64,000 nt of DNA from an uncultured Coriobacteriia bacterium (GCA_959608885.1 CAUHSG010000010.1:2441-66440); one strand, 5' to 3'; shown: positions 22,977 to 59,762, counted from the first letter of the stretch. Numbers and translations are program-made. The notes: generated by a model from the sequence alone, not told the origin.

Positions 22977-23957
22977 ATGGCTTACAATTACCCGCGGATA
23001 CAGGCGGGCGGGGCCGAAAGGCCTCAGTTGCTCGATTTTAACCATATATATAAGGTTCTGGCTACCTCCATTTTGGAAACGATTAGCCCCACGCGCTGTG
23101 TCGTATGCGACGAGCCCGGCGATGTCCTCTGCGCACGCTGCGCCGCCTCCCTCCCCTTCATCGACCTCGCGCTTGCGTGCTCGCGTTGCGGCGCACCCTA
23201 TGGGCATGCGCTGTGCACCGAGTGCCCCATGCCCGGCAGCGAGGCTGCGCTGCAGCATCCCGAAGAGGCGTTCCCGTTCACGCGCGCGCGGGCGGCACTT
23301 TCGTTCGAAGAAGGCGCGAAGAAGGTCATCCGTACCTACAAGGACGGTGACGAGCTGCGACTCGACGCAGTCATCGCGTCGATCATCTGCTCCGCGATCC
23401 GCATGAGACAAATGGACAGGTCACTTGTCTCACTATCGACAGGTACCAGTAATTTTTGGGACAAATGGACAGGTCATTTGTCTCAAAGCTTCAGCGAGGC
23501 AGAGCAGAGTCAAGAAATCGCCTCGCCCCCTCTTCGCGACTGGTCACAATGGGCAGGTGCGCTCGTGTACGTCCCGGCTTCGCCCGAAGCGTTGTTGAGA
23601 CGCGGGTTCGACCACATGGAGCGCGTGGCACGGATTGTTGCGCAACGCACGGGGCTGCCACTCGTGCGGGCACTCGAAAGCGGCAAGGGCGCGCAGGATC
23701 AACGCAATCTGGGGCGCAGCGAGCGATTGGCAAATCGCAGCGAAAGCTTTTCGCTGGCGGATAGCATGCGACCGGGAGCGCGGAGGACGGCTGACACGGG
23801 CAATCAGGCGGTGATGAGCGCGGATGTGGTGCCGCGGCGCATCATCCTCATCGATGACGTCTTCACGACAGGCGCGACGCTCTCGGCAGCAACGCGGGTG
23901 CTCCTCGGCGGTGGCGCTCACGAGGTCCGTGTCGTCACTTGCTGCCGCGTGTGGTGA
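22977..23957 (+). CDS. comF: ComF family protein (PRTase-like), start uncertain
   Basis: N-terminal CVVCDEPGDVLCARC..CSRCGAPYGHALCTEC and C-terminal PRT motif ILIDDVFTTGATL. The middle contains two type-2 hairpin repeats read in frame. Confidence 0.75.
   Translation: MAYNYPRIQAGGAERPQLLDFNHIYKVLATSILETISPTRCVVCDEPGDVLCARCAASLPFIDLALACSRCGAPYGHALCTECPMPGSEAALQHPEEAFPFTRARAALSFEEGAKKVIRTYKDGDELRLDAVIASIICSAIRMRQMDRSLVSLSTGTSNFWDKWTGHLSQSFSEAEQSQEIASPPLRDWSQWAGALVYVPASPEALLRRGFDHMERVARIVAQRTGLPLVRALESGKGAQDQRNLGRSERLANRSESFSLADSMRPGARRTADTGNQAVMSADVVPRRIILIDDVFTTGATLSAATRVLLGGGAHEVRVVTCCRVW
23404..23485. repeat. two type-2 hairpin repeats (23404-23432 and 23458-23485) inside comF
   Basis: TGAGACAAATGGACAGGTCACTTGTCTCA and GGGACAAATGGACAGGTCATTTGTCTCA. 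Confidence 0.8.
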
Positions 23958-23991
23958 CCAGACAATTGTCGCCGGGGCACTTTTGTCTTAT
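23957..23991. repeat. REP-like palindromic element type 1 (orientation B)
   Basis: ACCAGACAATTGTCGCCGGGGCACTTTTGTCTTAT starts at the last base of the comF stop codon. Confidence 0.85.
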
Positions 23992-24146
23992 TCGCCCGGT
24001 TACGAACCACTTGTCACATCAAGAAGAGCTTGGAACTCAGGGCAAGTCCGATATTGCTCGGTTATCAGTCTGCTATCAATCGGCTTTCATTCCATAATCG
24101 TCCAGATTGCTGGGGTAGATGTCTCGGCGCTCTCCCACATAGCATG

Positions 24147-24180
24147 GGACAAATGTCGCCGGGGCACTTTTGTCTGGTTT
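24147..24180. repeat. REP-like palindromic element type 1 (orientation B)
   Basis: GGGACAAATGTCGCCGGGGCACTTTTGTCTGGTT, 39 nt upstream of the RAYT ATG. Confidence 0.85.
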
Positions 24181-24218
24181 CGAGACATTTGCCACATTAC
24201 GATGAGATGGGAGTCCGC

Positions 24219-24971
24219 ATGTCCAAACATCGAATAAAAAGTGAGGGAGATATCTATCATGTAACCTCACGAGGAACAGGAAAACAGCTGATCTTTGAAG
24301 ATGACGATGACCGCCGGTTTTTTCTCCGCCTGCTTCACGAGACCCTTTCGAGTCACGCCGTCGATCTGTACGCCTGGTGCTTGATGGACAATCATTTTCA
24401 TTTGCTTCTTCATGGCGCGCTCGAAACCGTATCACTATGCATGCGTCATCTTTGCAGCAGCTATGCACGCCGATTCAACGAAAGAGCCGGTCGCACGGGA
24501 CATCTCTTTCAGGGGCGTTTCGGAAGTGAGGCAATCGATACCGACGCCTATTTGCTAATTGTCGTCAGGTACATTCACAAGAATCCCGAGAAGGCGGGGC
24601 TCGCGCACACTTCAGCGTATCGCTGGTCAAGCTACCGAGAGTATCTCGGGCATCCGACACTCTGTAAAACGCAGTTCGTCCTTGATGTATTTGGTGACAA
24701 GCAGGCGTTCGCAAGTTTTCATGCGCAGAATGACGAAGAGGCCGGATGTCTGGATGTTGACATGTCCAGAATGGCAAAGAGAAAAGCAATTGACGCACGG
24801 GCACTTCGCAAGGCGCAGAGAGTCATGGCTGGTATGAAATTGACCGACCTCAAGACGCTCCCGAAGAAAACCCGCGATGCACATCTTCGTGACATGAAAC
24901 GGTCCGGCCTTTCCATTCGCCAGATAGAGCGACTCACCGGAATAGGGCGCAATGTAGTCGCCAACGCATAA
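24219..24971 (+). CDS. rayT: REP-associated tyrosine transposase (RAYT; IS200/IS605-like Y1 HUH enzyme) with C-terminal DnaA_C-like HTH
   Basis: HUH motif CLMDNHFHLLLHG and Tyr motif VRYIHKNPEKAGL. The C-terminus SGLSIRQIERLTGIGRNVVANA is HTH-like. ATG 24219 is preceded by GATGGGAG. Confidence 0.85.
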   Translation: MSKHRIKSEGDIYHVTSRGTGKQLIFEDDDDRRFFLRLLHETLSSHAVDLYAWCLMDNHFHLLLHGALETVSLCMRHLCSSYARRFNERAGRTGHLFQGRFGSEAIDTDAYLLIVVRYIHKNPEKAGLAHTSAYRWSSYREYLGHPTLCKTQFVLDVFGDKQAFASFHAQNDEEAGCLDVDMSRMAKRKAIDARALRKAQRVMAGMKLTDLKTLPKKTRDAHLRDMKRSGLSIRQIERLTGIGRNVVANA

Positions 24972-25005
24972 TCAGACAAAACTGCTCCGGCGACTTTTGT
25001 CTCAT
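24971..25005. repeat. REP-like palindromic element type 1 (orientation A)
   Basis: ATCAGACAAAACTGCTCCGGCGACTTTTGTCTCAT overlaps the stop codons of both the RAYT gene and the convergent NhaC gene. Confidence 0.85.
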
Positions 25006-26300
25006 TTGCGGTTGAGGGCGATGCTGATGAGCACGCAGGCAAGCAACAGGAACTGGTAGAACAAGAACGGCATGATCTCGATGCTCGCGATGCCGGCGAG
25101 ACTCGCTGCGACGAGAAGCTGCGCGCCGTAGGGGATGATGCCCTGCCCGATGCAGCTGAAGATGTCGATGAGGCTCGCGACGCGCACGGGCTCGATACCG
25201 TACTCCTCGCCGATGTGCTTGGCGATGGGACCGGAAACCACGATGGCTACCGTATTGTTCGCGCAGGCTACGTCGAGCAGCAGCGTGAGCAGGCCACAGC
25301 CGAGCTCGCCACCGCGCTTGCCGGTGAAATGCCGCTTGATGAAGGCCAAAATGGACGCGAAGCCCCCGTGCTCCCGCATGAGCGCGCTGATCGATGCCAC
25401 CAGAATCGTGACGATCATCGTCTCGAACATGCCCGCCGTTCCCGTGCCCATGGCCGAGAACGCGCTCGCGAAATCGAGCGATCCCGTCACCGTGCCCACG
25501 ATGGCGAACAGCACGATGCCGCCGCCAAGCACGAGAAAGACGTTGATGCCGCACAACGCAGCGATGAGCACGACGAAGTACGGAATCGCCTGCCAGATGT
25601 TGTACTCGAAATCGTCGAGCGAGGGCGTGCCGGCCATAATCGCCATCACGATGAGAATGCCGAGCGTGATGAGCGCCGCCGGCAAGGCGATGTGGAAGTT
25701 GTTGAAGAACTTATCCTTCATGTTGACGCCCTGCGTGCGGGTCGCCGCGATCGTGGTATCCGAGATGAACGAGAGGTTGTCGCCGAACATCGCGCCGCCC
25801 ACGACGGTTCCCACGCACAGCGGCAGGTTGAAGCCCGCGCTGGCTGCGACCGTCACCGCAATGGGCGTGAGCACCGTGATAGTTCCCACGCTCGTGCCCA
25901 TGGCGAGCGAGATGATGCAGGCGATGACGAAGAGGCCGGGGATGGCCGCCTGGGCGGGCAGGATGTCGAGCAGCAGGTTCGCCGTGCTCTCGGCCCCGCC
26001 GGCCGCGCTCGCGATGCCGGAAAACGCACCGGCCATCAGGAAGATGAAGAGCATGATGACGATGTTGTCGTCACCGATGCCGCGTGCGCACACGTGAATC
26101 TTCTCGTCGAAGGACAGCGAACGGTTCTGCAGGAACGCGACGACGAGCGCGATAACGAAGGCCACGACGACGCTCACCACGTAGAAGCCCATCTGTCCTT
26201 CGGCGGGAGCGATGTACTCGAAATAGATGCCGCACCCGAGGTATAGCACCAGGAAGACGACGATGGGCAGCAATGCCTTTGCGTTTGGTTTCTTATCCAT
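25002..26300 (-). CDS. Na+/H+ antiporter NhaC family
   Basis: Polytopic membrane protein with NhaC-like segments (GDNLSFISDTTI, FSCIGQGIIPYGAQLL). I chose start MDKKPNAK; 26318 is an alternative. Confidence 0.8.
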   Translation of the reverse strand: MDKKPNAKALLPIVVFLVLYLGCGIYFEYIAPAEGQMGFYVVSVVVAFVIALVVAFLQNRSLSFDEKIHVCARGIGDDNIVIMLFIFLMAGAFSGIASAAGGAESTANLLLDILPAQAAIPGLFVIACIISLAMGTSVGTITVLTPIAVTVAASAGFNLPLCVGTVVGGAMFGDNLSFISDTTIAATRTQGVNMKDKFFNNFHIALPAALITLGILIVMAIMAGTPSLDDFEYNIWQAIPYFVVLIAALCGINVFLVLGGGIVLFAIVGTVTGSLDFASAFSAMGTGTAGMFETMIVTILVASISALMREHGGFASILAFIKRHFTGKRGGELGCGLLTLLLDVACANNTVAIVVSGPIAKHIGEEYGIEPVRVASLIDIFSCIGQGIIPYGAQLLVAASLAGIASIEIMPFLFYQFLLLACVLISIALNRK

Positions 26301-27569: not shown

Positions 27570-27571
27570 AC

Positions 27572-27602
27572 TGAGACAAAGTGGTCTGACCAACCTGTCT
27601 CA
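27572..27602. repeat. type-2 hairpin repeat
   Basis: TGAGACAAAGTGGTCTGACCAACCTGTCTCA, 3 nt after the mtnA stop. Confidence 0.8.
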
Positions 27603-28264: not shown

Positions 28265-28286
28265 CGTGCCCATCGGTCCCGCACGT

Positions 28287-29398: not shown

Positions 29399-29460
29399 GG
29401 CTCAACGTATGGTGCGCCATGGGGCCGATTCCCTCTGGCGCATCGAGAGAGAAGGACGAC

Positions 29461-30111
29461 ATGGCTCACATCGACCTGGAAACCAAGATTCTGAACAAGA
29501 ATGACGAAGGCGCTGCGGCAAATCGCGCCCTGCTCGACGAGAAGGGCATCTACATGGTCAACGTGCTGGCGAGCCCCGGGTCGGGCAAGACCTCGACCAT
29601 CGTGGCGACCATCAATGCGCTGCGCGACAAATACAACATTGCCGTCATCGAGGGCGATATCGCGAGCGACGTCGATTCGCAGACCATCAAGGCCCTGGGT
29701 ATTCCCGCGGTGCAGATCAACACTGCCGGTGCCTGTCATCTCGAGAGCGACATGCTGCGTCGCGCCCTTGACGTGCTCGACTTGGACGACATCGACCTCA
29801 TCTTCATCGAAAACGTGGGGAACCTCGTATGCCCGGCGGACTTCTACCTGGGCGAGAATATCAAGATGATGATCCTGTCGGTGCCCGAAGGCGATGACAA
29901 GCCACTCAAGTACCCCGGCATGTTCCAGGTGGCCGATGCCATCATCCTCAACAAGGTCGACGTGATGCCGGCCTTCACCTTTGACAAGGCGCTTTTCGAC
30001 GAGCACATCGAGCGCCTCAACCCTGGCGCGCCGAGCTTTGCCATCGCCGCAACCAAGGGTGACGGCGTTGACGAGTGGGCCGACTGGCACTCTGCCCAGA
30101 TCCACAAATGA
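29461..30111 (+). CDS. hypB: hydrogenase nickel-incorporation GTPase HypB
   Basis: ASPGSGKTS P-loop, IEGDIAS and IENVGNLVCP motifs. ATG 29461 follows GAGAGAGAAGGA. Confidence 0.9.
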   Translation: MAHIDLETKILNKNDEGAAANRALLDEKGIYMVNVLASPGSGKTSTIVATINALRDKYNIAVIEGDIASDVDSQTIKALGIPAVQINTAGACHLESDMLRRALDVLDLDDIDLIFIENVGNLVCPADFYLGENIKMMILSVPEGDDKPLKYPGMFQVADAIILNKVDVMPAFTFDKALFDEHIERLNPGAPSFAIAATKGDGVDEWADWHSAQIHK

Positions 30112-30198
30112 GACAAAGGCCGCCGGGGCGCTTTTGTCTGGTTGTGGGACCGGCGTCTCGAAACCAGACAAAAGCGCCCCGGCGGCATTTGTCTGGTT
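30109..30198. repeat. REP doublet (REPIN-like; B copy 30109-30143, A copy 30162-30198)
   Basis: TGAGACAAAGGCCGCCGGGGCGCTTTTGTCTGGTT, an 18-nt spacer, then AACCAGACAAAAGCGCCCCGGCGGCATTTGTCTGGTT. It lies between convergent hypB and ahcY. Confidence 0.9.
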
Positions 30199-30218
30199 TC
30201 CCCTTATTGCGGCCCGGC

Positions 30219-31478: not shown

Positions 31479-31541
31479 GGGTTCCTCCTCGATGAAATGA
31501 CACGCTGCACATACTATCACGGGTGGAGATACCAGCAGCAA

Positions 31542-31577
31542 ATAAGACAAAGTTGCCCCGGCGATATTTGTCTGGTT
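31542..31577. repeat. REP-like palindromic element type 1 (orientation A)
   Basis: ATAAGACAAAGTTGCCCCGGCGATATTTGTCTGGTT. Confidence 0.85.
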
Positions 31578-31602
31578 TGTTAGAATATGCTAACATTTGG
31601 GT

Positions 31603-31863: not shown

Positions 31864-31938
31864 ATGTGGGGCAGGGACACTATGCTGCGTCCCCGGTGTT
31901 CCCGTCTTTGCCTCATTACCGAATGGTCCCTTTCGGTA

Positions 31939-31969
31939 ATGAGGCAAATGACCTGTCCATTTGTCTCAT
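31939..31969. repeat. type-2 hairpin repeat (inner loop is the reverse complement of the comF copies)
   Basis: ATGAGGCAAATGACCTGTCCATTTGTCTCAT. Confidence 0.8.
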
Positions 31970-32540: not shown

Positions 32541-32574
32541 CTTCCCGGAGAGAGGGAGGGCATGTTTGAGATGG

Positions 32575-32611
32575 AACCAGACAAAAGTCGCCGGGGCAGT
32601 TTTGTCTGGTT
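32575..32611. repeat. REP-like palindromic element type 1 (orientation B)
   Basis: AACCAGACAAAAGTCGCCGGGGCAGTTTTGTCTGGTT abuts the feoB stop. Confidence 0.9.
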
Positions 32612-35301
32612 TACGTGGCTACCTTTACGGCCGTGTCCACATGGGCGGGCGCGGCGGGCTTGCTGGCCGGGCGGAAGAGCGCCCATAGCAGCGCCGCGAC
32701 AAACACGATGGCAACGATGGTTCCCAGACTGAAGACACCGGTGACGACCCATGCGCCAACCTGGAAGATGATGAGCGAAATCACGTAGGCAAATCCGCAC
32801 TCCCAGCCGATGGCAGCCCAGAACCACTTGTTGAAGCCACCCATCTCGCGCTTGATGGCGCCCATGGCCGCGAAGCACGGCGCGCAGAGCAGCTGGAAGG
32901 TCATGAAGGCGAAGGCCGCGACCGGCACGAGCAGGGCAGAACCAGTCGTCGCCGCGAGCGACGCCATGTAGGCACTGGTCCACGCGACGTTGGGATCGCC
33001 ACCGTACACCACGGCCATGGTCGAGATGACGTTCTCCTTTGCGATGAGACCGGTGATGACGGTGGACGCGCATTCCCAGTTGTTGAAGCCGAGCGGCGCG
33101 AATATCCACGCGAAGGCATTGCCGAAGTAGGCGAGGAACGAGTAATCCATCAGATCCTCGCCGACCCACATGAACTGGCCCTCGTAGATACCGTAACCTG
33201 ACAGGAACCAGACCACGATGGTGGCGAGCAGGATGATGGTGCCCGCCTTCTTGATGAAGGCCCAGGCGCGATCCCACATACTGCGCAACAGGTCGACGAA
33301 GCGCGGCAGGCGGTATTCAGGCAGCTCCATGACATAGGGGGTGACCTTGCCCATGAAGGGCCTGGTCTTGCGCAGGATGATGCCCGAGATAATGATGGCG
33401 GCGATGCCCATGAAGTACGCCAGCGGGGCGACCCACCACACGCCACCGAAAATGGCTGTCGCGATGAGGGCGATAATCGGTAGCTTGGCCGAGCACGGCA
33501 TGAAGGTCGTGGTCATGACCGTAAGGCGACGGGCACTCTCGGACTCGATGGTACGCGAGGCCATGATACCCGGCACACCGCAACCGGTGCCGACGATCAT
33601 GGGCACGAAGGTCTTGCCCGACAGGCCGAAGCGGCGGAAGAGGCGGTCGAGGATGAAGGTGACGCGGGCCATGTAGCCGCAGGCTTCGAGAATCGCCAGC
33701 AGGAAGAACAGGATCATGATCTGCGGCACGAAGCCGAGCACGGCCCCCACGCCGGCGACGACGCCGTCCATGATTAGGTCGTAGAGCCAGCCGGCGCATC
33801 CGACGGCCTCGAGCGCTGTGCCGATGAGAACGGGGATGCCGGGAATCCAGATGCCGTAGGCGCTCGGATCCTCGGGCGCGGGCACGCCGACGCCCTGGGT
33901 GATGACCTCACTGGTCTCCTCATCGGCGGATTCGCTGTCAAAGCTGTAGACGACGGCCTCGGCCGATCCCTCGCGACCCTCGGCGGCGATTTGCTCGTTA
34001 CGCGCATCGGCGAGGGCCTGCGCCTGTGCCTCACCCGCTTCGCCGTAGTACACGAAGTAGTCGGTCTCCATGGCGGATTCCTCGTCAACCGAGGTGTATT
34101 CGGCCACGAAGCCGGAGCTGGCAGCGTCTTGCTCGAACTCGGCAAGGGCAGCCCGGAATTCCGGAGACTCGAGGTCAGCGCCCTCTTCGGCTTCCTCACC
34201 GATGAACGCCGCTATCGTATCAGTGTTGACGCCCGCCTCGCCGGCTTGCGTCAGGTACTCGCTGATGGCAGTTTGCGCCTCGTCATAAGGCTCGGTCGCG
34301 GCATCAAGGGCAGATTGTGCTGTGCCCTCGGTTGACACGATTGCCACCGGGTCGAGGTACCACCCGTCACCGAAGACGCCGTCGTTGGCCCAGTCGGTCG
34401 CGTAGGTACCGACGGTGCTGATGGAGATGTAGTAGATGAACGTGATGATCACGACGAAAATCGGCAGCGCGAGGATGCGGTTGGTGAGCACGCTGTCGAC
34501 CTTCTCGGAGATGGTCGCACCGGAAACAGCGCGCTTGTGGACGCGCTTGATGAAGCCCTCGATATAGCGATAGCGCTCATTGGTGATGATGGCATCCGAC
34601 GAGTCGTCGAAGAGCACCTCGGCCTCAAGGATGATGTCATCGCAGTTGACCTTCGTGCCGATTTCCTCGACAGCTTCCTTGTCGCGCTCGAAGAGCTTGA
34701 TGGCGTAGTAGCGGCGCATGTTGTTGGGCATGACGCTGGGAAGCTTGTTCTCGATCTTGGTGAGGGCGGCTTCGAGCTCGGGAGTGAAACGGACGGACTG
34801 CGGGACAACGCCCTCGCGCGCCGCCTTCACGGCAGTGGTGACCAGGTCTTCGAGACCGTCGCCCTTGAGTGCCGAAATCTCGACGACCGGCACCTGAAGC
34901 TGCTCGGAGAGCTCCTTGGACTTGATGGTATAGCCGCGCTTCTTCACGATATCCATCTGGTTGAGCGCGACCACCACGGGCACGCCGAATTCCATGAGCT
35001 GCGTGGTCAGGTAGAGATTACGCTCGAGGTTGGACGCATCGACGATGTCGATGATGACGTCGGGGCGGCCGTCGACCAGATAATTGCGCGAGATGACCTC
35101 CTCGCTCGAGTACGGGGATAGCGAGTAGATGCCCGGCAGGTCGACGAACTGGACGTTCTTGTCGCTCTTGAGATGGCCGGTCTTTCGTTCCACCGTCACG
35201 CCGGGCCAGTTGCCCACGTATTGATGGTTGCCGGTAAGTTGGTTGAACAGCGTCGTCTTACCTGAGTTGGGGTTGCCCACCAGCGCAATGGTCGTTTCCA
35301 T
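32611..35301 (-). CDS. feoB: ferrous iron transporter FeoB with a large acidic insertion
   Basis: G-domain GNPNSGKTTLFN and DLPGIYSL, followed by the polytopic membrane domain. An about 180-aa D/E/A-rich insert (GDGWYLDP..PEDPSAYGIW) follows the first TM region. Confidence 0.95.
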   Translation of the reverse strand: METTIALVGNPNSGKTTLFNQLTGNHQYVGNWPGVTVERKTGHLKSDKNVQFVDLPGIYSLSPYSSEEVISRNYLVDGRPDVIIDIVDASNLERNLYLTTQLMEFGVPVVVALNQMDIVKKRGYTIKSKELSEQLQVPVVEISALKGDGLEDLVTTAVKAAREGVVPQSVRFTPELEAALTKIENKLPSVMPNNMRRYYAIKLFERDKEAVEEIGTKVNCDDIILEAEVLFDDSSDAIITNERYRYIEGFIKRVHKRAVSGATISEKVDSVLTNRILALPIFVVIITFIYYISISTVGTYATDWANDGVFGDGWYLDPVAIVSTEGTAQSALDAATEPYDEAQTAISEYLTQAGEAGVNTDTIAAFIGEEAEEGADLESPEFRAALAEFEQDAASSGFVAEYTSVDEESAMETDYFVYYGEAGEAQAQALADARNEQIAAEGREGSAEAVVYSFDSESADEETSEVITQGVGVPAPEDPSAYGIWIPGIPVLIGTALEAVGCAGWLYDLIMDGVVAGVGAVLGFVPQIMILFFLLAILEACGYMARVTFILDRLFRRFGLSGKTFVPMIVGTGCGVPGIMASRTIESESARRLTVMTTTFMPCSAKLPIIALIATAIFGGVWWVAPLAYFMGIAAIIISGIILRKTRPFMGKVTPYVMELPEYRLPRFVDLLRSMWDRAWAFIKKAGTIILLATIVVWFLSGYGIYEGQFMWVGEDLMDYSFLAYFGNAFAWIFAPLGFNNWECASTVITGLIAKENVISTMAVVYGGDPNVAWTSAYMASLAATTGSALLVPVAAFAFMTFQLLCAPCFAAMGAIKREMGGFNKWFWAAIGWECGFAYVISLIIFQVGAWVVTGVFSLGTIVAIVFVAALLWALFRPASKPAAPAHVDTAVKVAT

Positions 35302-35337: not shown

Positions 35338-35368
35338 ATGAGACAGATGCTCTGAGCAGCTGTCTCAT
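35338..35368. repeat. type-2 hairpin repeat between feoA and feoB
   Basis: ATGAGACAGATGCTCTGAGCAGCTGTCTCAT. Confidence 0.8.
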
Positions 35369-36054: not shown

Positions 36055-36080
36055 GCCAGCTCTCCCCTGGCCGCCGCGGG

Positions 36081-36114
36081 ACCAGACAATTCCGCCCCGG
36101 CGGCTTTTGTCTGG
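36081..36114. repeat. REP-like palindromic element type 1 (orientation A)
   Basis: ACCAGACAATTCCGCCCCGGCGGCTTTTGTCTGG. Confidence 0.85.
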
Positions 36115-36144
36115 CCGCTGTTTCGTTGCGCGACGGCATCTGTC

Positions 36145-39353: not shown

Positions 39354-40256
39354 ATGCGCCAACATCGCAAGAATGAGACAAATGCCCTGGGCAAATGTCT
39401 CATTTTGCTGCTCGTCGCAGCGCTCGCGCTGTTGCCGGGATGCTCATCGGCGCTGTCATCGCTGCCAACGACGGGACTCCCCTCGGGCGTCGAGTACACC
39501 GATCTTGGCACCCCCAACTTTGGCGAGCTTGCCGGACAAACCGAATCCTTCGAGGAGTACAGCCCGCTTGACGCGCTGGGGCGCTGTGGTGCGGCGACCG
39601 CGTGCATCGGTCGTGACCTCATGCCCACCAAGGAGCGGGGGCAGATCAGCTCCATCAAGCCCACGGGCTGGCAGCGCGCCGAGTACGACTTCATCGACGG
39701 CGGCCTGCTCTACAATCGCTGCCACCTCATCGCCTACAGCCTCACCGCCGAAGACCTCAACGAGCGAAACCTCATCACTGGCACGCGGCAGATGAACCTC
39801 GCGATGACCGAGTTCGAGAAACTCGTGTGCGACTACGTGGAAGACACCGGCAATCACGTGCTATACCGGGTCACGCCCGTATTCGAGGGCGTCGAGCTCG
39901 TCGCGCGGGGCGTGCAGATGGAGGCACTTTCCATGGAGGATAACGGCGAGGCTATCTGCTTCAACGTCTTCATCCCCAACGAACAAGACGGCGTTGGCAT
40001 TGACTATCTAACAGGGTATAGCTGGCTAGCTGGAGAGAGTGGAGGCACGGGCTCGAAGAACGGCGAAGGCGCTGCCGGGAGAAGTGGCGACGAGACCACG
40101 TGCGTCTACGTGCTCAACACGAGCAGTAAGCGCTTCCACCTCCCCACCTGCGATTCCGTCCCCACCATCAGCGCGAAGAACAAAGCCGAAAGTGATAAGT
40201 CCCGTGACGAATTGATAGCCGAGAGCTACAAGCCCTGCGGCAGCTGCAAGCCGTAG
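39354..40256 (+). CDS. secreted lipoprotein DNA/RNA nuclease (EndA/DNA-entry-nuclease-like) with C-terminal Cys motif domain
   Basis: Lipobox LLPGC, nuclease core YNRCHLIAYSL..ITGTRQMN, and C-terminus RFHLPTCDS..YKPCGSCKP. The signal n-region is encoded by type-2 repeat 39373-39403. Confidence 0.8.
   Translation: MRQHRKNETNALGKCLILLLVAALALLPGCSSALSSLPTTGLPSGVEYTDLGTPNFGELAGQTESFEEYSPLDALGRCGAATACIGRDLMPTKERGQISSIKPTGWQRAEYDFIDGGLLYNRCHLIAYSLTAEDLNERNLITGTRQMNLAMTEFEKLVCDYVEDTGNHVLYRVTPVFEGVELVARGVQMEALSMEDNGEAICFNVFIPNEQDGVGIDYLTGYSWLAGESGGTGSKNGEGAAGRSGDETTCVYVLNTSSKRFHLPTCDSVPTISAKNKAESDKSRDELIAESYKPCGSCKP
39373..39403. repeat. type-2 hairpin repeat inside the nuclease signal-peptide coding region
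   Basis: ATGAGACAAATGCCCTGGGCAAATGTCTCAT, translated as NETNALGKCLI. Confidence 0.8.
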
Positions 40257-41009: not shown

Positions 41010-41012
41010 TAA

Positions 41013-41048
41013 AACCAGACAAAAGTGCCCCGGCGACAACTGTCTGGG
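41013..41048. repeat. REP-like palindromic element type 1 (orientation A)
   Basis: AACCAGACAAAAGTGCCCCGGCGACAACTGTCTGGG. Confidence 0.85.
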
Positions 41049-41125
41049 CACAATGAAAAGCGGGGCGGTTGCTCGAGGCAACCGTCCCGCTCGTTTTTGC
41101 TACTAAGCTGCCGCGCTTTGGGATG

Positions 41126-44657: not shown

Positions 44658-46155
44658 ATGCAGACGCAAAGCTCACCCATAGTAGCGTATCGCGACCACT
44701 GGACTTCCGAGTGCATTGCGCTCATCTGCGGAATCGCCAATGCGGGCGGCGGAACCCTTGTCATAGAGTCGAGTGAGAAAGCCTACACGACCGGTCGGCG
44801 CAAGCTGAGGCGTCCGTTCGAGCAGATCCCCAAGCTTGTCGAAAAGGAGCTGGGCCTGCAATGCACAACCGAACCCGTGCTCGACGGCACGGCGCTGTGC
44901 CTGGAAACGACCGTTCCGGCAGCGGCAAAACCCCTCGCCTATGACGGCACGTACTGGCTCTACGCCGGCAACGCGAACATTCGCTCGACCCGCAAGACAA
45001 TCGAAGGGGTCCTGTCAAACGCCCCTGGCGACACCGAATCATTCGATACGCCCTGGGAGATGCGACCCCAGGCCGGAGTCAAGCTCGAGGATCTGAACGC
45101 CCGGGTGTTCCTCACGGTCGCGGCGCTGAAGACCGAAACATCTGACTTGCCCATGGACCCACTGGGAGCCGTGTTCGAGCATCGCCTGGCCCACCTGAAC
45201 CTGGAAAACCCACAGACCCAGGCCATAACGAACGCCGGCGTTCTGCTCCTGCACAACCAGCCCGATGCGATCATACCCGGTGCCCTGGTGCAGTTGCGAC
45301 TCCTCGCGCAGGACGAGCGGGTCGTGTTGCACGACGAGGTGAGCGGCCCCCTGCTCCGTCAAATCAAGGAGACGTCGCGTCTGCTCTTCGAGCAGTACCT
45401 GCCCATGGCGATCGCCGCCTCCGGATCGATGAACGATCCCGCCGCGGGTCTGAACTTTCCATCCCGCGAAGCCGTGCGCGAGGCCCTGTTGGGGGCACTG
45501 GCGCACAAGGACTACGCATGCGGCCAGCCGGTAAGCGTCGACGTCTTTCCCAGCCGCATGATCATACGAAATCCCACGGAGGCAGGCGTGCCCAGCCTTG
45601 CAGCTGGCGAGGATTCCGAAGTCCCGGCCATTGTCGCAAATCCCGTTCTCACCAGGGCCATGCGTCTCGTCGGCATCATGGATGACCGGGACGTCGATTA
45701 CGAGCGAATCAGCCAGAAGAACCTCGAGGTCGGACTCGATGCTCCCCTTCTCGAACAGGATGACGGCGAGACGTCAATCACCTTTCCCTTGGATTCGGAG
45801 AAAAGGCGGCAAATGAGCACCCCCCCCCCCTGCGCATGATTTTGACTCCGAATCCCCGGCACCTGCTAGCCGCGTGACCAACGTTTCCAATATCGAGAAC
45901 CCCGAATCCAAACCCAGGTACACGCCCTTCTCGGCACGCTCCATCGCGGCTGCCAACGAGCTCGATCTCACCTCGACCGACGAGTACGTCTTGCGCGTGC
46001 TGCACACCAACGGCCGTGCGACGGCGGTGCGCATAGCAAACGTGCTGGGCGTGAGCGAGAGCACCGTGCGACGGGCGTTCAGGAAGCTGAAGAAGCACGG
46101 CCTCATCGACCGCATAGGGTCGGACAAGGCCGGCTACTGGCACGTGAACGTGTAG
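44658..46155 (+). pseudogene. regulator R1 (COG2865-type AlbA_2 / HATPase_c_4 / wHTH) split by a +1 frameshift in a C11 tract
   Basis: ORF 44658-45839 (393 aa) ends MSTPPPCA* and ORF 45874-46155 carries the wHTH. Removing one C from 45819-45829 fuses them into a 498-aa protein colinear with R2 (491 aa). Confidence 0.75.
45819..45829 (+). repeat. homopolymeric C11 tract in the R1 linker
   Basis: Counted directly: gcaCCCCCCCCCCCtgcgca. Confidence 0.95.
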
Positions 46156-46531: not shown

Positions 46532-49500
46532 CTACATCGCCTGGAAGGCGTTGCCGGCTGCGGGGTTCTTCTCCGCGGCGGCGTCGTACTTCCTGCCACC
46601 CATGATGTCGCCCTCGAAGTCGTCCATGTCACGGATACCATGGCGGCGGCGGTAGAGCACCGCGAGGCCGTAGACGATGGTGACCAGGGCGCCGAAGATC
46701 ATCAGCCAGTGGGTCCAGCAGTGGATCTCCTCGAAGGCGGCGAGGGCGTTCTCGTCGTCATCGATGGTCGCCAGAGGCACACCGTCGTCGAGGATGGTGG
46801 CGGCGGCAGCTGCGGCAGCCGCGGGAGCGGCGGCGGCAACCGGCGCCAGCGGGGCAGCGGCGGCAGGTGCAGGCGTGGCATCAGGCGTAGCCGTGGGGAG
46901 CGCGGTGAAGGCAATGACGAAGGCCGTGTCATCGGTGAGCTCCATGTTGGCGAGCGGCTCGTTGTTCCACATGCCGTTGCCGTAACCGTCGTCGGCGGTC
47001 GCGCCGGGGATCTGAGCCGCGGTCAGGACGGCCACGCCGTCCTCGGCCAGGTTGCCGGCGGCGTCGTACTTGTTGAGCACGTAGCGGGCAGGACCGTCGA
47101 TGGTGCCAGCGATGGCCGCATAGGTCACGACGAGCTGGTACTTGTCAGCAATGCCATCGGGGACGTTGTTGCCGGGGTCGGTCGGATCCGTTCCGATGAC
47201 ATCCAGCGCCCAGTTGGCGGTGAAGGTGTACTCGGTGTTGCCCTGGAGCTCGCGAGTCAGGTTGGAGGCAACTGCGTTGCCGTCCTCGGTCCATCCGTCG
47301 AAGACAAAGCCGGCAGTCGGGTTAGTGGCCACACCGTCGAAGATGTTAACGGTGCCAGAGGTCGCGTTGTTGGCGAAGGTGACAACCTTCTGCGCAAGGT
47401 TAACGGTGCCCTGAGCGTTGTTAGCCGAGACATAGTTGACGACGGCCTGGTACTTGTCGGGGATGCCGTCACCAGGGTTCTCGCCATTGCCATCGTTGTT
47501 GGGGTCGGTGATGACGTCAACAGCGTAGGTCAGGGTGATAACGTTATCGTCCGCATTGGCCCCAATGGTTAGCTGCTCCGTGTTAGCACGCTCGAAGATA
47601 TATCCCTCGATGGCAATAACCTCGTCGGAGGAGCTAATGACGCTCTCAAACTCCTGGGGAGCACCGGTCTTGGGATCGAGCAGGGTGTTTCCATCCTCGT
47701 CAACATAGTTAACGGTGTAGGGGAAAGAGTCCTTGACGTAGGTGACGGTGACCTCGGCGCCGTTGGCGACCTGGGTGCCCGCCGTCACGTCCGTGCCGTC
47801 TGCGAGCTTGACGGTGGAGAGCTTGTAGCCGGCGTACTTCTGGTCGGCCACGTCGGCGGCCTTGAGCTCGAGGGTCTGCGGGTCGTTGACCCACACGCCC
47901 TTGGCCTCGCCGGTGAAGGTCGCGCGGGGGGCGTCCTCGCCGTCGACCACGTGCTTGACGGTGTAGGCCAGGTCGTTTGCCTGGGAGTCGTCCTTGACGT
48001 AGGTGACGGTGACCTCGGCGCCGTTGGCGACCTGGGTGCCCGCCGTCACGTCCGTGCCGTCTGCGAGCTTGACGGTGGAGAGCTTGTAGCCGGCGTACTT
48101 CTGGTCGGCCACGTCGGCGGCCTTGAGCTCGAGGGTCTGCGGGTCGTTGACCCACACGCCCTTGGCCTCGCCGGTGAAGGTCGCGCGGGGGGCGTCCTCG
48201 CCGTCGACCACGTGCTTGACGGTGTAGGCCAGGTCGTTTGCCTGGGAGTCGTCCTTGACGTAGGTCAGCGTGATGGTGGTGCCGCTCTCGACCTTGGTGG
48301 TGCCCTCGGCGACCGAGATGGAGTCGAACTTGTAGCCGGGATAAGTATTCTGGTCGAGGCTACCTGTAACGATGGCAATCATCGCTGGGATATCGGTAGA
48401 AGTGGAAGTGTAGGTCTTGGTATCGGCGGTCTGCTCGACGCCGGCGACCACGTGCTTGACGGTGTAGCTGGTTTCTGTGGCAATGGGCTTCCACTGGGCG
48501 ACATAGATGACATCATCAGTCACAGTCTCTGCAACTGCCGGATTCCAGCCAGTAAACTCATATCCAGTTCGTTCTGGAGTGCCTTTAAAAGCAGGCGTGA
48601 ACTTACCAGCTTCCACGGTATACGATTGGTCCGCAAAGACTTCCTCTCCATCTACGCCATCGACGTACTGAATAGTGTAATCTTTCACTTTTTCAACAAT
48701 TGACACGACAAAGATATCGCAGATTCCAGAAGGAGCCATATGAAGCACATATGTTGTTGCTCCGATAGCTTCACTTGCGGTGATAGTGTTTTTAGCATTA
48801 GTATTATCTTCAATTTGGACATTCGAATTGGTTGAACGCCATACATGATCGTTCTTCGAGTCGTCTGTGCCCTCTAATCTGATCTTTCCTCCACTTTTTA
48901 CAGCAGTTTCATGAATTACGGCGTTGGGATACTCTTTCGTCAGCCGCTCTAGCGTCCAACCTGTGATATTGATATCGGTAGCATAGCTTCCTGTTCCAGA
49001 GTTATTTCCATTCCCGTTGCCGACGGCAGCAAACGTCGTGGCGCCACCAAGCTTCTCGATGAAGTTGCTGATAGCATTCTTCACCTTGTTGGCTTTTTCA
49101 CCCAGCTCGGTGGAGGGAGCGGGGGTGGAAGGCTCGGCAGCGTCAGTATTGGCGGAACCCGTGGCGGCCTCGGCGGTCACGACGATGGTGGCACCGTCCG
49201 CGACCCTATCGGCAGCGACAGTGTACTCGCCGGCGTTGGGGGTGAGCGTCGTCTCGCCCTTGGCATCAGCTAGCTTGACGGCAGCCGCGCCCAGCGTAAA
49301 GCCATCGGCGGCCTTTACCGTGAACTTCATATCCTTGCCAGCCGGAACGACGAGCTCGGTCGCGGCATCCTTGCCGTTGTAGGTGACCGTGGCGTTCTGT
49401 GCCTTCACCTTGAGCGTCACATCGGCCGGAGTGGCGTCATCGGCATCGTCTTCGTCCTCGACGCTGGCAATGCTGAGCAGCTCGACGGGCTCGAGCTTCT

Positions 49501-50099: not shown

Positions 50100-51575
50100 A
50101 TGGACACGCAGGAAACACCCCTGGTGGTCTATCGCGACCACTGGACCCCCGAGTACATCACCCTCATCTGCGGAATTGCCAATGCTGGCGGCGGTACGCT
50201 GGTCATAGAGTCAAACGACAACATATACACCACCGGACACCGCAAGATGCGGCGCCCCTTCGAGCAGATTCCCCGTATCATCGAGCGCGACCTGGGGATT
50301 CAGTGCACCACCGAGCCGGTGCTCGATGGAATCAATCTGTACCTGGAGATTCTCGTTCCGGCTGTTGCCGAGCCGCTGACCTACGAGGGCGAGTACTGGC
50401 TGTACTCGGAAGGCCACAACACGCGCTCGACCCGCGAGACCGTCTGGGCCTCCCTCAACGGCGCCGCCTCCCAACAGGATACGGAGGCAGGCGACACCCT
50501 TTCCTGGGAGATGCGCCCCCAACCCTACGTCGAGCAAGGGCAGTTGAACGCCCGCCAGTTCCTGGCACTCGGACTGCTCAAGATCGATGCGCCCGACCCA
50601 CCCACGAGCAGCGTCGAGACGGCGATCTTGCGACGTCTCGACTACCTGAACCTACGTGGCACGCGGGGCGACGGCATAACGAACGCCGCCATCGTGCTCC
50701 TGCACAACCATCCCGAAAGCATCATCCCCGGAGCGACGGTGCAATTGGAACTCGTAGCCCAGGACGATCACGCATTGCTGCGCAACGAGATAGGCGGCGG
50801 CATAAGCTGTCAGGTGGAGGAGTCGCTGCGCCTGCTCTTCGAGCAATACCTGCCCATGGCGGTGGCAACGTCCACCACCACGGAAAACCCTGTCATCGCA
50901 CTCAACTTCCCACCACAGGAGGCCGTCCACGACGTGCTGCTCGATGCCATTGTGGGCAAGAACTACGAAACCGGTCAGCCCGTGCGTGTGAGCGTGCACC
51001 CGGACAAGCTCATCATCTCGATGCCGTGTGGCGGCGTCGAAGCACCCGGCGGGGCAAACCCCGTCCTCGCGCGGGCGTTGCACCTCATGGGCTACCTGGA
51101 CAGCCAGAACGTGAACTTCGAGCGCGCCGTGCTGCGCTGTGGCGACATGGGGGCGGCACTGCCGGTCATCGAGCATGGTTCCCGTGAGACAACGGTGACA
51201 TTCTCGTTGGATTCGCAGAAAACGTGGCAAATGAGCACCCCCCCCCCTGCGCAAAATTTGGCCCGCAAGCCGCTGCCGGGCAACTTCTCGTCGACGCCGG
51301 AAAGCGGAATCGTCGGACTTGGCGAGGCGGCGCCCAAGGACGCCCCCTTCTCGGCACGATCCATCGCCGCGGCAAACAATCTGGACTTCACGTCGACCGA
51401 CGAGTACGTGCTGCGCGTGCTGCACACCAACGGCCGCGCGACGGCGGTGCGCATTGCCGGCGTGCTCGGCGTGAGCGAGAGCACGATACGTCGCTCGTTC
51501 CGCAAGCTGCGCGAGTACGGGCTCATCGAACGCGTGGGGTCAGACAAGGCCGGCTACTGGCGCGTGAATTCGTGA
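50100..51575 (+). CDS. regulator R2 (COG2865-type: AlbA_2-like N-terminus, HATPase_c_4-like middle, C-terminal wHTH), intact
   Basis: YRDHWTPEYITLICGIANAGGGTLVIES, AVHDVLLDAIVGKNYETGQPVRV, and TDEYVLRVLHTNGRATAVRIAGVLGVSESTIRRSFRKLREYGLIERVGSDKAGYW. It contains an in-frame C10 tract. Confidence 0.85.
   Translation: MDTQETPLVVYRDHWTPEYITLICGIANAGGGTLVIESNDNIYTTGHRKMRRPFEQIPRIIERDLGIQCTTEPVLDGINLYLEILVPAVAEPLTYEGEYWLYSEGHNTRSTRETVWASLNGAASQQDTEAGDTLSWEMRPQPYVEQGQLNARQFLALGLLKIDAPDPPTSSVETAILRRLDYLNLRGTRGDGITNAAIVLLHNHPESIIPGATVQLELVAQDDHALLRNEIGGGISCQVEESLRLLFEQYLPMAVATSTTTENPVIALNFPPQEAVHDVLLDAIVGKNYETGQPVRVSVHPDKLIISMPCGGVEAPGGANPVLARALHLMGYLDSQNVNFERAVLRCGDMGAALPVIEHGSRETTVTFSLDSQKTWQMSTPPPAQNLARKPLPGNFSSTPESGIVGLGEAAPKDAPFSARSIAAANNLDFTSTDEYVLRVLHTNGRATAVRIAGVLGVSESTIRRSFRKLREYGLIERVGSDKAGYWRVNS
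51238..51247 (+). repeat. homopolymeric C10 tract in the R2 linker (in frame)
   Basis: Counted directly: gcaCCCCCCCCCCtgcgca, encoding TPPP. Confidence 0.95.
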
Positions 51576-52016: not shown

Positions 52017-52131
52017 GGCTTCCCCTGCCCTTCCTGGTCAACCTGCGTTGCGAGAAAGCGACTCGCAAACAGGACATTCGCAAGATGACGAGCACATTGT
52101 ACTTGCCGACGACCGGAATGTCATCATTTAC

Positions 52132-52162
52132 GTGACAAAAGTCGCCGGGGCAGTTTTGTCAC
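52132..52162. repeat. REP-like palindromic element type 1 (GTGACA arm variant, orientation B)
   Basis: GTGACAAAAGTCGCCGGGGCAGTTTTGTCAC. Confidence 0.85.
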
Positions 52163-52210
52163 GCTTGGGACGATGATGTATGGCCGAATATGGTGCATGG
52201 TATACTACAG

Positions 52211-57693: not shown

Positions 57694-57910
57694 TGCTCTG
57701 ACCGTGTATTATTCGCAAAATTAACCTCCTGACCAGTGGTTTTTTATGGCACTTGTCCTGTCATATCTGCATACCTATCCGAAAATTGTCCTTCATTTGT
57801 CGTGCTTTTGACATGGTAACGCCATGCTATTAAAATGAACGCGCTGGTTGCTGAAGGAACCTTCTGAATAGAAAAAACAAACAGGTACCGTACGCACTAC
57901 GGAGGTCGCC

Positions 57911-59290: not shown

Positions 59291-59304
59291 TGGGCAAAAG
59301 AAAA

Positions 59305-59321
59305 GGGGCCATGAAGGCCCC
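59305..59321 (+). terminator. hairpin after R3
   Basis: GGGGCC-ATGAA-GGCCCC. Confidence 0.4.
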
Positions 59322-59330
59322 GGTTAGTCT

Positions 59331-59406
<76 letters not shown>

Positions 59407-59428
59407 GTTTTCAAAACACGTGTCACGT

Positions 59429-59464
59429 AACCAGACAAAAGCGCTCCGGCGACATTTGTCTGGT
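59429..59464. repeat. REP-like palindromic element type 1 (orientation A) between the two tRNAs
   Basis: AACCAGACAAAAGCGCTCCGGCGACATTTGTCTGGT. Confidence 0.85.
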
Positions 59465-59488
59465 GCGCATTTGCCTCCAAGTATCAAT

Positions 59489-59527
59489 AAACGCCCCGGC
59501 GGCGACTCGGCCCACGCCGGGGCGTTT
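59489..59527 (-). terminator. long GC hairpin downstream of tRNA-Ile
   Basis: AAACGCCCCGGCG..CGCCGGGGCGTTT, followed on the minus strand by ATTGAT. Confidence 0.55.
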
Positions 59528-59538
59528 ATTACCTAGAA

Positions 59539-59615
59539 TGGTGGGCCTTACAAGATTCGAACTTGTGACCTCACGATTATCAGTCGTGCGCTCTAGCCAA
59601 CTGAGCTAAAGGCCC
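59539..59615 (-). tRNA. tRNA-Ile (anticodon GAU)
   Basis: The reverse complement is GGGCCTTTAGCTCAGTTGGCTAGAGCGCACGACTGATAATCGTGAGGTCACAAGTTCGAATCTTGTAAGGCCCACCA. Acceptor stem GGGCCTT/AAGGCCC, anticodon loop CT-GAT-AA, and an encoded CCA. Confidence 0.9.
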
Positions 59616-59729
59616 GCGCAAATACGCGAGCATGTATGTTGCCACAATCTTAGTGCCTTGGGAAGCGTTTATTCGAGAAAGTTTGCTTCGTTTCCGTGGA
59701 AGTGCCCCGCAAACAACACGAGTGGCCCG

Positions 59730-59762
59730 ATGAGACAGCTTGGTCAGACCAAACTGTCTCAT
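59730..59762. repeat. type-2 hairpin repeat downstream of gyrA
   Basis: ATGAGACAGCTTGGTCAGACCAAACTGTCTCAT is a nearly perfect 15-bp hairpin. Confidence 0.85.

Follow-up and report, generated by a model that had tools for sequence, protein, structure and literature searches.

Hairpin repeats of an uncultured Coriobacteriia bacterium share a conserved foot with interchangeable interiors and are probably tied to a RAYT/TIRYT-like Y1 transposase

Repetitive extragenic palindromic (REP) sequences and REPINs, together with REP-associated tyrosine transposases (RAYTs), form the REPtrons described in Escherichia coli and Pseudomonas, for which the structure of TnpA_REP (4ER8) is available (Bertels & Rainey 2011, PMC3116915; Nunvar 2010; Ton-Hoang 2012). 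Abundant REPINs or flanking repeats have been found only for RAYT groups 2 and 3, in Gammaproteobacteria (Bertels et al., PMC5581495). The TIRYT/TIRtron system (Di Nocera 2013, PMC3733652), probably identical to Group 1 of the RAYTs of Bertels et al., was equated by Quentin et al. with TnpA_Y1 subclass 2.1, whose members carry a C-terminal helix-turn-helix (HTH) domain (Bac_DnaA_C, HTH_23 or HTH_28-like) and have 'no REP-like sequences' nearby, and the Actinobacteridae sample of the same study contained only subclass 1.1 (Quentin 2018, PMC6006769). In-frame intragenic REPs have also been reported earlier, both by Di Nocera (2013, PMC3733652) and for subclass 2.4 tnpA_REP genes (Quentin 2018, PMC6006769). 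Here we analysed a 64,000-nt window (G+C ~60%) from an uncultured Coriobacteriia bacterium (GCA_959608885.1 CAUHSG010000010.1:2441-66440), which carries seven hairpins, called type 2, besides more numerous type-1 hairpins and a gene for a Y1 transposase. We consider it likely that the seven hairpins are copies of a REP-like family and that, with type 1, they form one superfamily tied to this RAYT/TIRYT-like transposase. The superfamily is characterized by a conserved foot, G(A/G)GACA(A/G) ... (T/C)TGTC(T/C)C, and interchangeable apical parts.

Exact matches to TGAGACA-N13-19-TGTCTCA were found at five positions of the window (23404-23432, 27572-27602, 35339-35367, 39374-39402 and 59731-59761), where none is expected by chance (0 in 100 dinucleotide-preserving shuffles), and two further copies have a single mismatch in the left arm (TGGGACA at 23457-23485 and TGAGGCA at 31940-31968). 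These are the seven sites named in a preliminary description of the window, all of which contain the motif and the coordinates of which were right within 1 nt. All seven share the register TGAGACA-N2-3-TGNNC-N-GNNCA-N2-3-TGTCTCA, 29 or 31 nt in length. Since AA precedes and TT follows the unit in ~84% of family members, the full unit was taken to be AATGAGACA-interior-TGTCTCATT, 33-35 nt.

The seven copies, which fall into subfamilies 2A to 2D, occupy diverse positions relative to genes. Two 2C units, the first with the interior AATGGACAGGTCACT, lie 53 nt apart and in the same orientation within comF (22977-23957, + strand), forming a doublet, and the copy at 31940, located between divergent genes, belongs to the same type in reverse-complement orientation. 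Both 2B units are 31 nt long; the one at 27572 (interior AAGTGGTCTGACCAACC) begins 2 nt past the stop codon of mtnA, for which an exact-protein look-up gave no match, probably owing to a differing start codon, and the one at 59731 (interior GCTTGGTCAGACCAAAC) lies 22 nt past the stop codon of gyrA (minus strand) and upstream of tRNA-Ile. A 2A-like unit (interior GATGCTCTGAGCAGC) is located in the gap between feoA and feoB, 37 nt before the start codon of feoB (minus strand), and a 2D unit (interior AATGCCCTGGGCAAA) at 39374 lies in frame in a lipoprotein / Endonuclea_NS_2 gene. As a separate observation, a perfect 17-bp hairpin (TTTGCCTCATTACCGAA ... TTCGGTAATGAGGCAAA) occurs at ~31899-31948, upstream of the 31940 copy; it shares the segment ATGAGGCAAA with the left arm of that copy, so that the two hairpins would be mutually exclusive, and the arrangement at 31899-31968, conserved in the related genome UMGS650, resembles an attenuator.

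To what extent the family occurs outside the window was determined by scanning a pattern with 20 specified bases against one genome for each of 185,579 species. The pattern matched at least 97 stretches, and among the matches listed nearly all were in a few uncultured gut Coriobacteriia/Coriobacteriaceae/Collinsella genome bins; in ~670 kb of loci fetched from related genomes, 105 exact type-2 units were counted. Loci of other genomes are numbered with the prefix L below. Among the relatives, a contig of UMGS650 is syntenic with the window at 91-93% identity, and a 'Collinsella sp.' bin is 98-99% identical to it. The claim of the preliminary description that there is a second hairpin-repeat family related to type 1 is borne out by the more than 100 copies in relatives, by compensatory changes, by hybrids and by mutual replacement of the two types at orthologous sites. 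No description of these repeats in Collinsella or Coriobacteriia was found in the literature.

The pattern also matched Omnitrophota, a Chloroflexi bin (L012) and a 'Clostridium sp.' bin (L048, L075). Such matches in other phyla could be coincidence, because a palindromic family needs only ~10 independent bases to match; for Omnitrophota, the presence of a homologous transposase between hairpins argues for a real link. Two Omnitrophota bins contain a 31-nt family, (c)aaTGAGACAAAsTGTnCnGnACACTTTGTCTCAtt (L057:1305-2340, L017, L038, L050, L055, L065, L080, L083, L085, L089). A different repeat motif, CTTGTCATTTCGACCG + TCGAAATGAC, often near GAGAAATCTC, was seen in intergenic regions with hairpins in L046, L067, L076, L053, L005 and L066, and appears to be another repeat family of the clade.

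Sequence comparison of the units resolved the interiors. The dominant form in the related loci, 2A, is aaaaTGAGACAGTTGCTC[A/T]GAGCAACTGTCTCAtttt; 2B is (N)TTGGTCWGACCAA(N), 31 nt; 2C is AATGGACAGGTCATT, often with the arms TGGGACA/TGTCCCA; and 2D is AATGCCCTGGGCAAA or AATACACAGGGTATT. It had been stated at first that every interior is itself self-complementary, and this applies to four distinct interiors, GATGCTC-T-GAGCAGC, AAGTGGTC-T-GACCAACC, GCTTGGTC-A-GACCAAAC and AATGCCC-T-GGGCAAA, the last being that of the 39374 copy, which was missing from the original list. It does not apply to the AATGGACAGGTCA / GGACAGGTC (2C) subfamily: the AATGGACAGGTCA(C/T)T interior of the 23404 and 23457 copies, reversed at 31940, is non-palindromic, with pairing in RNA folds confined to its outer part. 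The GGACAGGTC interior holds an asymmetric GGGAC[AG]G-like box, which is also seen beside homologous transposase genes across phyla.

Predicted RNA folds of the seven copies range from -10.6 to -21.6 kcal/mol (z from -1.95 to -6.5 relative to shuffles), the weakest being the 23404 copy with -10.6 kcal/mol, while its partner in the comF doublet reaches -16.1 kcal/mol (z = -4.8). Stem covariation was assessed on 71 distinct 33-nt units, in which 89.8% of the cells are paired, compared with 80% in shuffled data and ~38% with a slid partner. Both sides vary in 9 of 15 pairs, and the 106 compensatory cells were matched by none of 500 shuffles. Even the outermost triplets covary (TGA/TCA, TGG/CCA, CCA/TGG, TAA/TTA and CGT/ACG), and the G-GACA / TGTC-C core is invariant, in part as a result of how the units were selected. 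These data indicate that the type-2 hairpins are a hairpin-constrained repeat family rather than chance palindromes.

In addition to type 2, the window contains 18 type-1 hairpins, which follow the form CCAGACAAAAG-TCGCCGGGGCAG-TTTTGTCTGG and occur in either orientation, giving a total of ~25 units in 64 kb. Three hairpins combine parts of both types. The hairpin at 24142-24180, which ends 38 nt upstream of the start codon of the transposase gene, has a 2C-like left arm (TGGGACAAATG) joined to a type-1 interior (CGCCGGGGC) and a type-1 right arm. The inverted hairpin at 24969-25007, overlapping the stop codon of the same gene, has a type-1 left arm and interior with the type-2 right arm TGTCTCA (TGTCTCATTTG). 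The third, at 30106-30144, has the left arm TGAGACA, the TGA of which is the stop codon of the gene at 29419-30111, and its interior and right arm are of type 1; together with a type-1 hairpin at 30161-30199, 55 nt further on, it makes up an inverted doublet.

The transposase gene (24219-24971, + strand) encodes a RAYT-like Y1 (HUH) protein of 250 aa and is intact, with the HUH motif NHFHLLL and the catalytic tyrosine in RYIHKNP...YRWSS; the motifs of the open reading frame (ORF) include GDIYHV...NHFHLLL...GHLFQGRF...RYIHKNPEKAGL...YRWSSY. Searches by phmmer with E. coli RAYT, IS200, IS608 and ISDra2 as queries gave weak matches only (E = 0.03 and 1.1), and the assignment became convincing only with profile, family and fold tests. 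The protein matched Pfam Y1_Tnp with 44.9 bits (gathering score 23), and its best NCBIfam match was 'REP-associated tyrosine transposase' (REP_Tyr_transpos, NF047646) with 72.7 bits (E = 2.7e-20). The HUH, Y---NP and WSS residues are invariant in 36 homologues, and the family, some members of which have been named RayT by JGI, comprises 2187 proteins at E <= 1e-5. When the family profile was compared with the PDB, the best match was the E. coli RAYT structure 4ER8 (profile E = 0.014). In a fold comparison with an AlphaFold model (pLDDT 87.5), 4ER8 again came first (E = 4e-6, target-normalised TM 0.70, root-mean-square deviation (rmsd) 3.0 Å over 148 columns), whereas IS200/IS605 transposases superposed on the model with an rmsd of 6-13 Å. 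The model also includes a confident helical C-terminal domain (residues 183-249), which is HTH-like and contains the conserved motif GLSIRQIERLTGIGRN; matches to Pfam HTH families were weak and confined to the Omnitrophota homologue (HTH_7, 0.0014; HTH_23, 0.0088).

The gene is flanked by a type-1 hairpin at 23955-23993, which overlaps the stop codon of comF and forms the left boundary of the REPtron, by the hairpin at 24142 and, in inverted orientation, by that at 24969, that is, in a REPtron arrangement. The same layout, with foot-bearing hairpins upstream and an inverted one at the stop codon, was found in L100, L101, L102, L104, L105, L106 and L187. In every related genome examined the flanking hairpins are that genome's own dominant variant: type 1 in the window, and 2A, 2C, 2D-like or other variants in relatives. 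Specifically, the RAYT of L100 (62% protein identity to that of the window) is accompanied by AATGAGACAAATAC[ACAGG]GTATTTGTCTCATT, with 8 copies in 20.7 kb, that of L101 (52%) by 2C, that of L106 (55%) by ATGAGACAAAAGTTCGTCCGACGAACTTTTGTCTCAT and a TAAGACA-armed family, that of L105 (67%) by hairpins with type-2 arms and a type-1-like interior, that of L104 (78%) by type-1-like hairpins and that of L102 (50%), at a different locus, by imperfect type-2-like hairpins. This co-variation of RAYT allele and hairpin type suggests a contribution of the interior to specificity. Five genomes (the window, L100, L101, L106 and L187) share the gene order topA-comF-RAYT; L105, for which only the end of the upstream ORF is covered, was left out of this count.

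The co-variation is clearest in L187. The L187 RAYT has 56% protein identity to that of the window, although the neighbouring genes have ~85% DNA identity, and it is flanked by type-2A hairpins. Between the two (window 23940-25010 and L187:2330-3260), identity ends right after the comF stop codon and resumes within the right arm of the downstream hairpin (TTGTCTCATTTGCGGT...), which explains the 24969 hybrid as an exchange junction within the shared foot. On this comparison, the RAYT gene and its flanking hairpins look like a replaceable cassette between close relatives.

The association extends beyond the clade. In L057, TGAGACAAA...TTTGTCTCA hairpins with the same foot enclose an Omnitrophota homologue (35% identity, E = 1e-29). 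We also scanned the 300-nt flanks of 80 metagenomic homologues with 30-46% identity for GGGAC[AG]G, which occurs there at 3.07 per kb, compared with 0.16 in the gene and 0.49 further away, corresponding to an enrichment of ~19-fold over the gene and ~6-fold over distal sequence, and is present in 55 of the 80 loci. It is often the apex of a hairpin with a variable stem, in some cases with GACA/TGTC feet. The box is carried by the 2C copies of the window, whereas the hairpins flanking the window RAYT carry GGGGCA instead. The preliminary description had suggested a common recognition determinant for the two types, possibly the same RAYT. A RAYT-like gene in the window, with homologues, including that of Omnitrophota, flanked by hairpins with the same foot, upholds the link to a RAYT; that one RAYT would serve both types 1 and 2 in this genome appears rather doubtful, given the co-variation of allele and hairpin type.

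Comparison of orthologous sites revealed extensive turnover. At the 3' site of gyrA, the window has TTGGTCAGACCAAA and L045 has GTGCCTGGCAC, both palindromic and both inside the arms ATGAGACAGC / CTGTCTCAT, in agreement with the initial proposal that interiors are swapped while outer arms are kept. At the mtnA 3' end, the window has one 2B copy, L030 (bin44) has two copies and a fragment, and in L187 the stop codon comes from a 2C copy. In the convergent region at 30.1 kb, four species have four different elements, all starting from the same TGA stop codon. The two types also take each other's place at orthologous sites with flanks of 93-98% identity: the type-1 hairpin at 1747-1785 corresponds to a 2A copy in UMGS650 (flanks 93% and 98% identical), that at 5727-5765 to a 2C variant (TGGGACA..TGTCCCA) in three relatives, that at 8144-8182 to 2A copies in its place or beside it, and that at 31540-31578 to a 2B-like copy in bin44, each in the same intergenic region. 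The breakpoints of replacements fall within the shared foot. In addition, orthologous 2A copies with almost the same flanks can differ by a flip of the central A/T, which amounts to inversion of the palindrome.

Gains and losses could be followed at single sites as well. The type-1 copy at 32574-32612, in the convergent region downstream of feoB, stands in place of an unrelated ~57-nt segment retained by two relatives, with flanks 98% identical to UMGS650 and 86-92% identical to bin 02074, indicating a recent gain in the window lineage. Most of the type-2 copies of the window that were checked are common to sister species at orthologous positions, and no recent gain was seen among them: the 35339 copy is conserved in L031 and L036 and the 39374 copy in L084, and the 31940 copy occurs in UMGS650 (L031) but not in bin 02074 (L006). 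Because type 1 flanks the transposase gene and includes a recent gain, and type-2 copies are mostly common to sisters, type 2 is read as the older of the two.

Based on these comparisons, we propose that the transposase binds the folded hairpin on single-stranded DNA and would cut and rejoin at the foot, thereby spreading and exchanging copies. The type-2 copies of the window would be mainly the legacy of a time, or an allele, with a type-2 cognate hairpin, the cognate allele possibly being the one now present in relatives such as L187, and type 1 would be the variant now expanding. A further proposal, which we put forward tentatively and regard as possible with the balance well against it, is that the foot is a site of transposase-mediated strand exchange, at which the enzyme rewrites existing copies by swapping interiors, inverting units and exchanging transposase-plus-hairpin cassettes, with gene 3' ends and the comF position acting as reusable 'docking sites' for the current variant. 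If true, this would be site-specific, cassette-like turnover of REPs in an HTH-bearing Y1 subclass previously reported without REPs.

The co-variation of RAYT allele and hairpin type between genomes would also fit a different reading, in which type 2 would be a REP family in its own right, currently active and served by a second RAYT elsewhere in the genome, with only the common descent of the two systems linking it to type 1. Its own tnpA_REP gene is usual for each REP family (Quentin 2018, PMC6006769), and the 64 kb covered leave room for such a gene. However, neither the window nor the 670 kb of type-2-rich related loci revealed a second Y1 gene, and no recent gain is seen among the checked type-2 copies. 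Moreover, the type-2-flanked RAYT of sister genomes occupies the same comF-adjacent locus as the type-1-flanked RAYT of the window, making the two alleles rather than paralogues. We therefore judge a separate type-2 system to be unlikely.

Several copies lie within coding sequences. The comF reading frame is open through the doublet (23404-23485), which encodes an insert at ~aa 143-170, between the double zinc-ribbon and phosphoribosyltransferase domains. In an alignment of ComF proteins, distant Coriobacteriales have no linker insert, whereas the Collinsella clade has a hypervariable insert of 20-80 residues at one position. These inserts are translated hairpin subfamilies in reading frames that differ among lineages: GQMDRSFVP and FWDKWTGHLSQ derive from 2C, MRQFGQTHLSH from 2B, NETNTQGICL from 2D and NETHWTGTSVS from another variant. 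The hairpin origin was confirmed in the DNA of L100, L101 and L187. An rlmKL-like ORF at 11348-13636 (minus strand; 762 aa, with RlmL_1st, THUMP, UPF0020 and Methyltrans_SAM domains) is likewise open through an inverted type-1 doublet (12002-12040 and 12057-12095), which codes for ~residues 514-545 of an inter-domain linker, and UMGS650 has a type-2 copy at the same spot.

The 39374 hairpin falls within the first 50 nt of the lipoprotein / Endonuclea_NS_2 gene (39354-40256, + strand) and encodes the N-terminal part of its signal peptide, MRQHRKNETNALGKCLILLLVAALALLPGC. This gene starts 2 nt past the stop codon of a HerA/DUF87-like ATPase gene, and in L001 a BrnT-like toxin gene is seen downstream of it. 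On either strand, two of the three frames of the unit are open, which would account for the tolerance of in-frame inserts, and the copies in the comF linker, the rlmKL linker and the signal-peptide N-region would persist for this reason.

To describe positions relative to genes across the clade, 152 units (<=1 mismatch per arm) were classified with a crude self-trained gene caller, with correction of over-extended start codons, to which many seemingly intragenic copies were traced. Most units lie between same-strand genes (92 of 152), followed by convergent (25) and divergent (18) intergenic regions; 5 are inside a called gene and 12 at a locus edge. Among the 117 copies downstream of a gene, 26 (~22%) supply its stop codon through the TGA of TGAGACA and a further 17 begin 0-3 nt past it, the median distance being 16 nt. 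All 12 adjacent pairs of units are spaced 48-58 nt apart and thus form doublets, inverted in the case of the type-1 pairs 12002/12057 and 30106/30161 and of a pair in L095, and direct in comF; perfectly palindromic units have no definable orientation. Orientation relative to transcription showed no bias for the asymmetric families or the central base of 2A, so that a role at the RNA level is neither supported nor excluded by it. We suggest that settled hairpins may serve as orientation-independent structures at mRNA 3' ends, acting as weak or bidirectional terminators or as exonuclease barriers.

Could the hairpins be ordinary intrinsic terminators that have become alike by convergent selection, and not mobile at all? 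Copies right after stop codons and in convergent regions, a stable stem between A-rich and T-rich flanks, and the one convergent site with a different hairpin in each of four species would all be expected of terminators. Convergence is, however, already contradicted by repeat identity and the transposase association: near-identical 29-33-mers occur at unrelated loci and in different genomes, doublets have a fixed spacing, and the Y1 transposase gene is consistently flanked. The canonical U-tract rule (G+C-rich stem, >=5 T in 8 nt) did not identify any unit, the stem being followed by only 2-4 T, and a promoter/terminator consensus scan of 22.5-40.5 kb gave 13 terminator-like sites, equal to the shuffle expectation and none at a hairpin unit. 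In addition, three window copies are in coding sequence and one is in the feoAB operon, where a strong terminator would be harmful. We regard convergent terminators as very improbable.

The U-tract and scan results and the coding and operon copies also count against the terminator role that we suggest for settled hairpins, and other points weigh against the proposed REP-like superfamily and its link to the transposase. The NCBIfam match of the transposase lies below the curated cut-off of 80 bits, and the 5' GT[AG]G tag of canonical REPs is absent: the tag or its complement stands near (within ~12 nt) only 4 of 25 units, without a constant position. The comparison loci were chosen for exact type-2 matches, which introduces ascertainment bias, and are mostly from metagenome bins, where repeats can mis-assemble. 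The location statistics rest on approximate gene calls, and the source genome is represented by 64 kb only, so that a second Y1 gene dedicated to type 2 could lie elsewhere.

If the units were miniature inverted-repeat transposable elements (MITEs) mobilised by a DDE transposase such as that of an IS3- or IS21-type element with TG...CA ends, this would account for their starting with TG and ending with CA and for their make-up of two abutted inverted repeats. Yet the AA...TT flanks are inverted and not direct, and a site filled by a 2B copy in UMGS650 and empty in two other genomes shows no target-site duplication. A cognate DDE insertion sequence with these ends was not seen either, and the specific association is with a Y1 gene. 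A DDE-type miniature transposon was ruled out on the lack of a duplication and of a cognate insertion sequence, and we rate it as highly unlikely. Operators of a palindrome-binding transcription factor with a large regulon would agree with long dyad-symmetric units having a conserved outer half-site and with the presence of some copies, above all 2C, in divergent promoter regions. They are at odds with gene 3' ends as the main location, with the very large number of copies (>100 in ~670 kb), with compensatory substitutions that keep pairing and not sequence, and with the swapping of interiors at orthologous sites. Location, copy number and compensatory changes rule out this reading, which we consider barely conceivable.

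The proximity to comF brought to mind sequences like DNA-uptake signals. Uptake sequences of Neisseria often form inverted pairs in terminators, and here the transposase gene and in-frame copies lie beside or inside this competence gene. But TGAGACA occurs 16 times in the window, 14 times as a hairpin arm and twice elsewhere, with a chance expectation of 7.6, and single copies in coding sequence are not in excess; the uptake reading, ruled out by this lack of enrichment outside hairpins, is hardly credible. CRISPR and integron attC readings were dismissed on finding no arrays, adjacent copies forming only doublets 48-58 nt apart.

The remaining type-1 hairpins of the window are located at 1056-1094 (with the arm variant CGTGACA/TGTCACG), 19678-19716 (the family reference copy), 36079-36117, 41012-41050 (common to UMGS650), 52128-52166 (CGTGACA arm variant) and 59428-59466, the last lying between tRNA-Ile and tRNA-Ala and common to bin 02074. 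Between the same tRNA genes, a long G+C-rich hairpin with a terminator-like look (ATAAACGCCCCGGCG...CGCCGGGGCGTTTAT, 59476-59522), conserved in bin 02074, belongs to neither repeat family. An Rfam scan of the whole window at gathering thresholds found no family at any hairpin, its only matches being two tRNAs and a raiA RNA motif (11068-11309, minus strand; 155 bits, gathering score 101). The region of 41.8-59.3 kb contains three paralogous clusters with surface proteins of 985, 1063 and 1542 aa carrying Flg_new and CLIPPER-type repeats; in two accompanying genes, C10-11 tracts (45820-45830 and 51238-51247) right after ...AAATGAGCA could be a phase-variation switch, and the 1063-aa ORF has a perfect 261-nt tandem duplication (47729-48250).

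Together, our data extend REP/RAYT-type systems to a new bacterial group, Collinsella-like Coriobacteriia. These systems have been worked out almost wholly in Proteobacteria, and their HTH-bearing branch (Group 1, subclass 2.1, TIRYT) has, according to earlier descriptions, either no REPs or modest terminal-repeat families; here, an abundant human-gut clade carries a dense hairpin superfamily paired with a RAYT-like protein that has an HTH-like tail. Its sister species offer natural 'experiments', with alleles at one locus having their own hairpins, in-place replacement, hybrids and the comF hotspot, and such natural variants allow one to ask which part of the hairpin, foot or apex, sets transposase specificity. 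The repeats matter for annotation too, in that about one fifth of the copies provide a stop codon and some lengthen proteins by 10-30 residues, and they are likely to fragment assemblies and create strain-level polymorphism in metagenomes.

Among known systems, the in-frame insertion into genes without breakage, as in the comF linker, the rlmKL linker and the lipoprotein signal peptide, recalls Rickettsia palindromic elements (RPEs). Different from RPEs, which are 100-150 nt long, the units here have 29-35 nt, most copies are extragenic, and a single comF position is a recurrent hotspot for differing subfamilies and frames among lineages. Small loop inversions associated with hairpins, and quasipalindrome mutation by template switching, are known from chloroplast non-coding DNA and bacterial quasipalindromes. 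The flips of the central A/T with near-identical flanks and the concerted change of arms resemble these, whereas whole interiors are here exchanged for variants present elsewhere in the genome, which points to copy replacement rather than only local mutation.

With REP/RAYT systems, the hairpins share their short, high-copy, extragenic and palindromic nature, the fixed spacing of doublets and the concentration of copies downstream of genes. The Y1 HUH gene, too, keeps its place in the chromosome with inverted repeat copies on its flanks, repeat and transposase are paired in a family-specific way, and the fold of the protein is closest to 4ER8. They differ in being nearly perfect palindromes with a conserved 'double foot' instead of bulged stems, in a host from Coriobacteriia (Actinomycetota), and in a protein whose sequence bears only a remote resemblance to that of the E. 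coli RAYT (phmmer E ~1; profile E = 0.014) and which has an extra C-terminal, helical, HTH-like domain. Given the absence of the GTAG tag and this HTH-like tail, the closest described relatives are TIRYT/TIRtrons. Compared by features, the protein resembles a TIRYT in being longer than canonical RAYTs and in its probably HTH-type C-terminal extension. As in TIRtrons, the inverted repeats on the flanks have no relation to GTAG REPs; among the TIR families published, some are self-complementary, moderately abundant and arranged in dimers. The G-rich box, GGGGWSAS as published, may have its counterpart in the GGGGACAG / GGACAGG of 2C. Unlike in TIRtrons, each flank of the RAYT gene is here a complete hairpin, and this hairpin is at the same time a member of a dense genome-wide family, with ~25 units in 64 kb.

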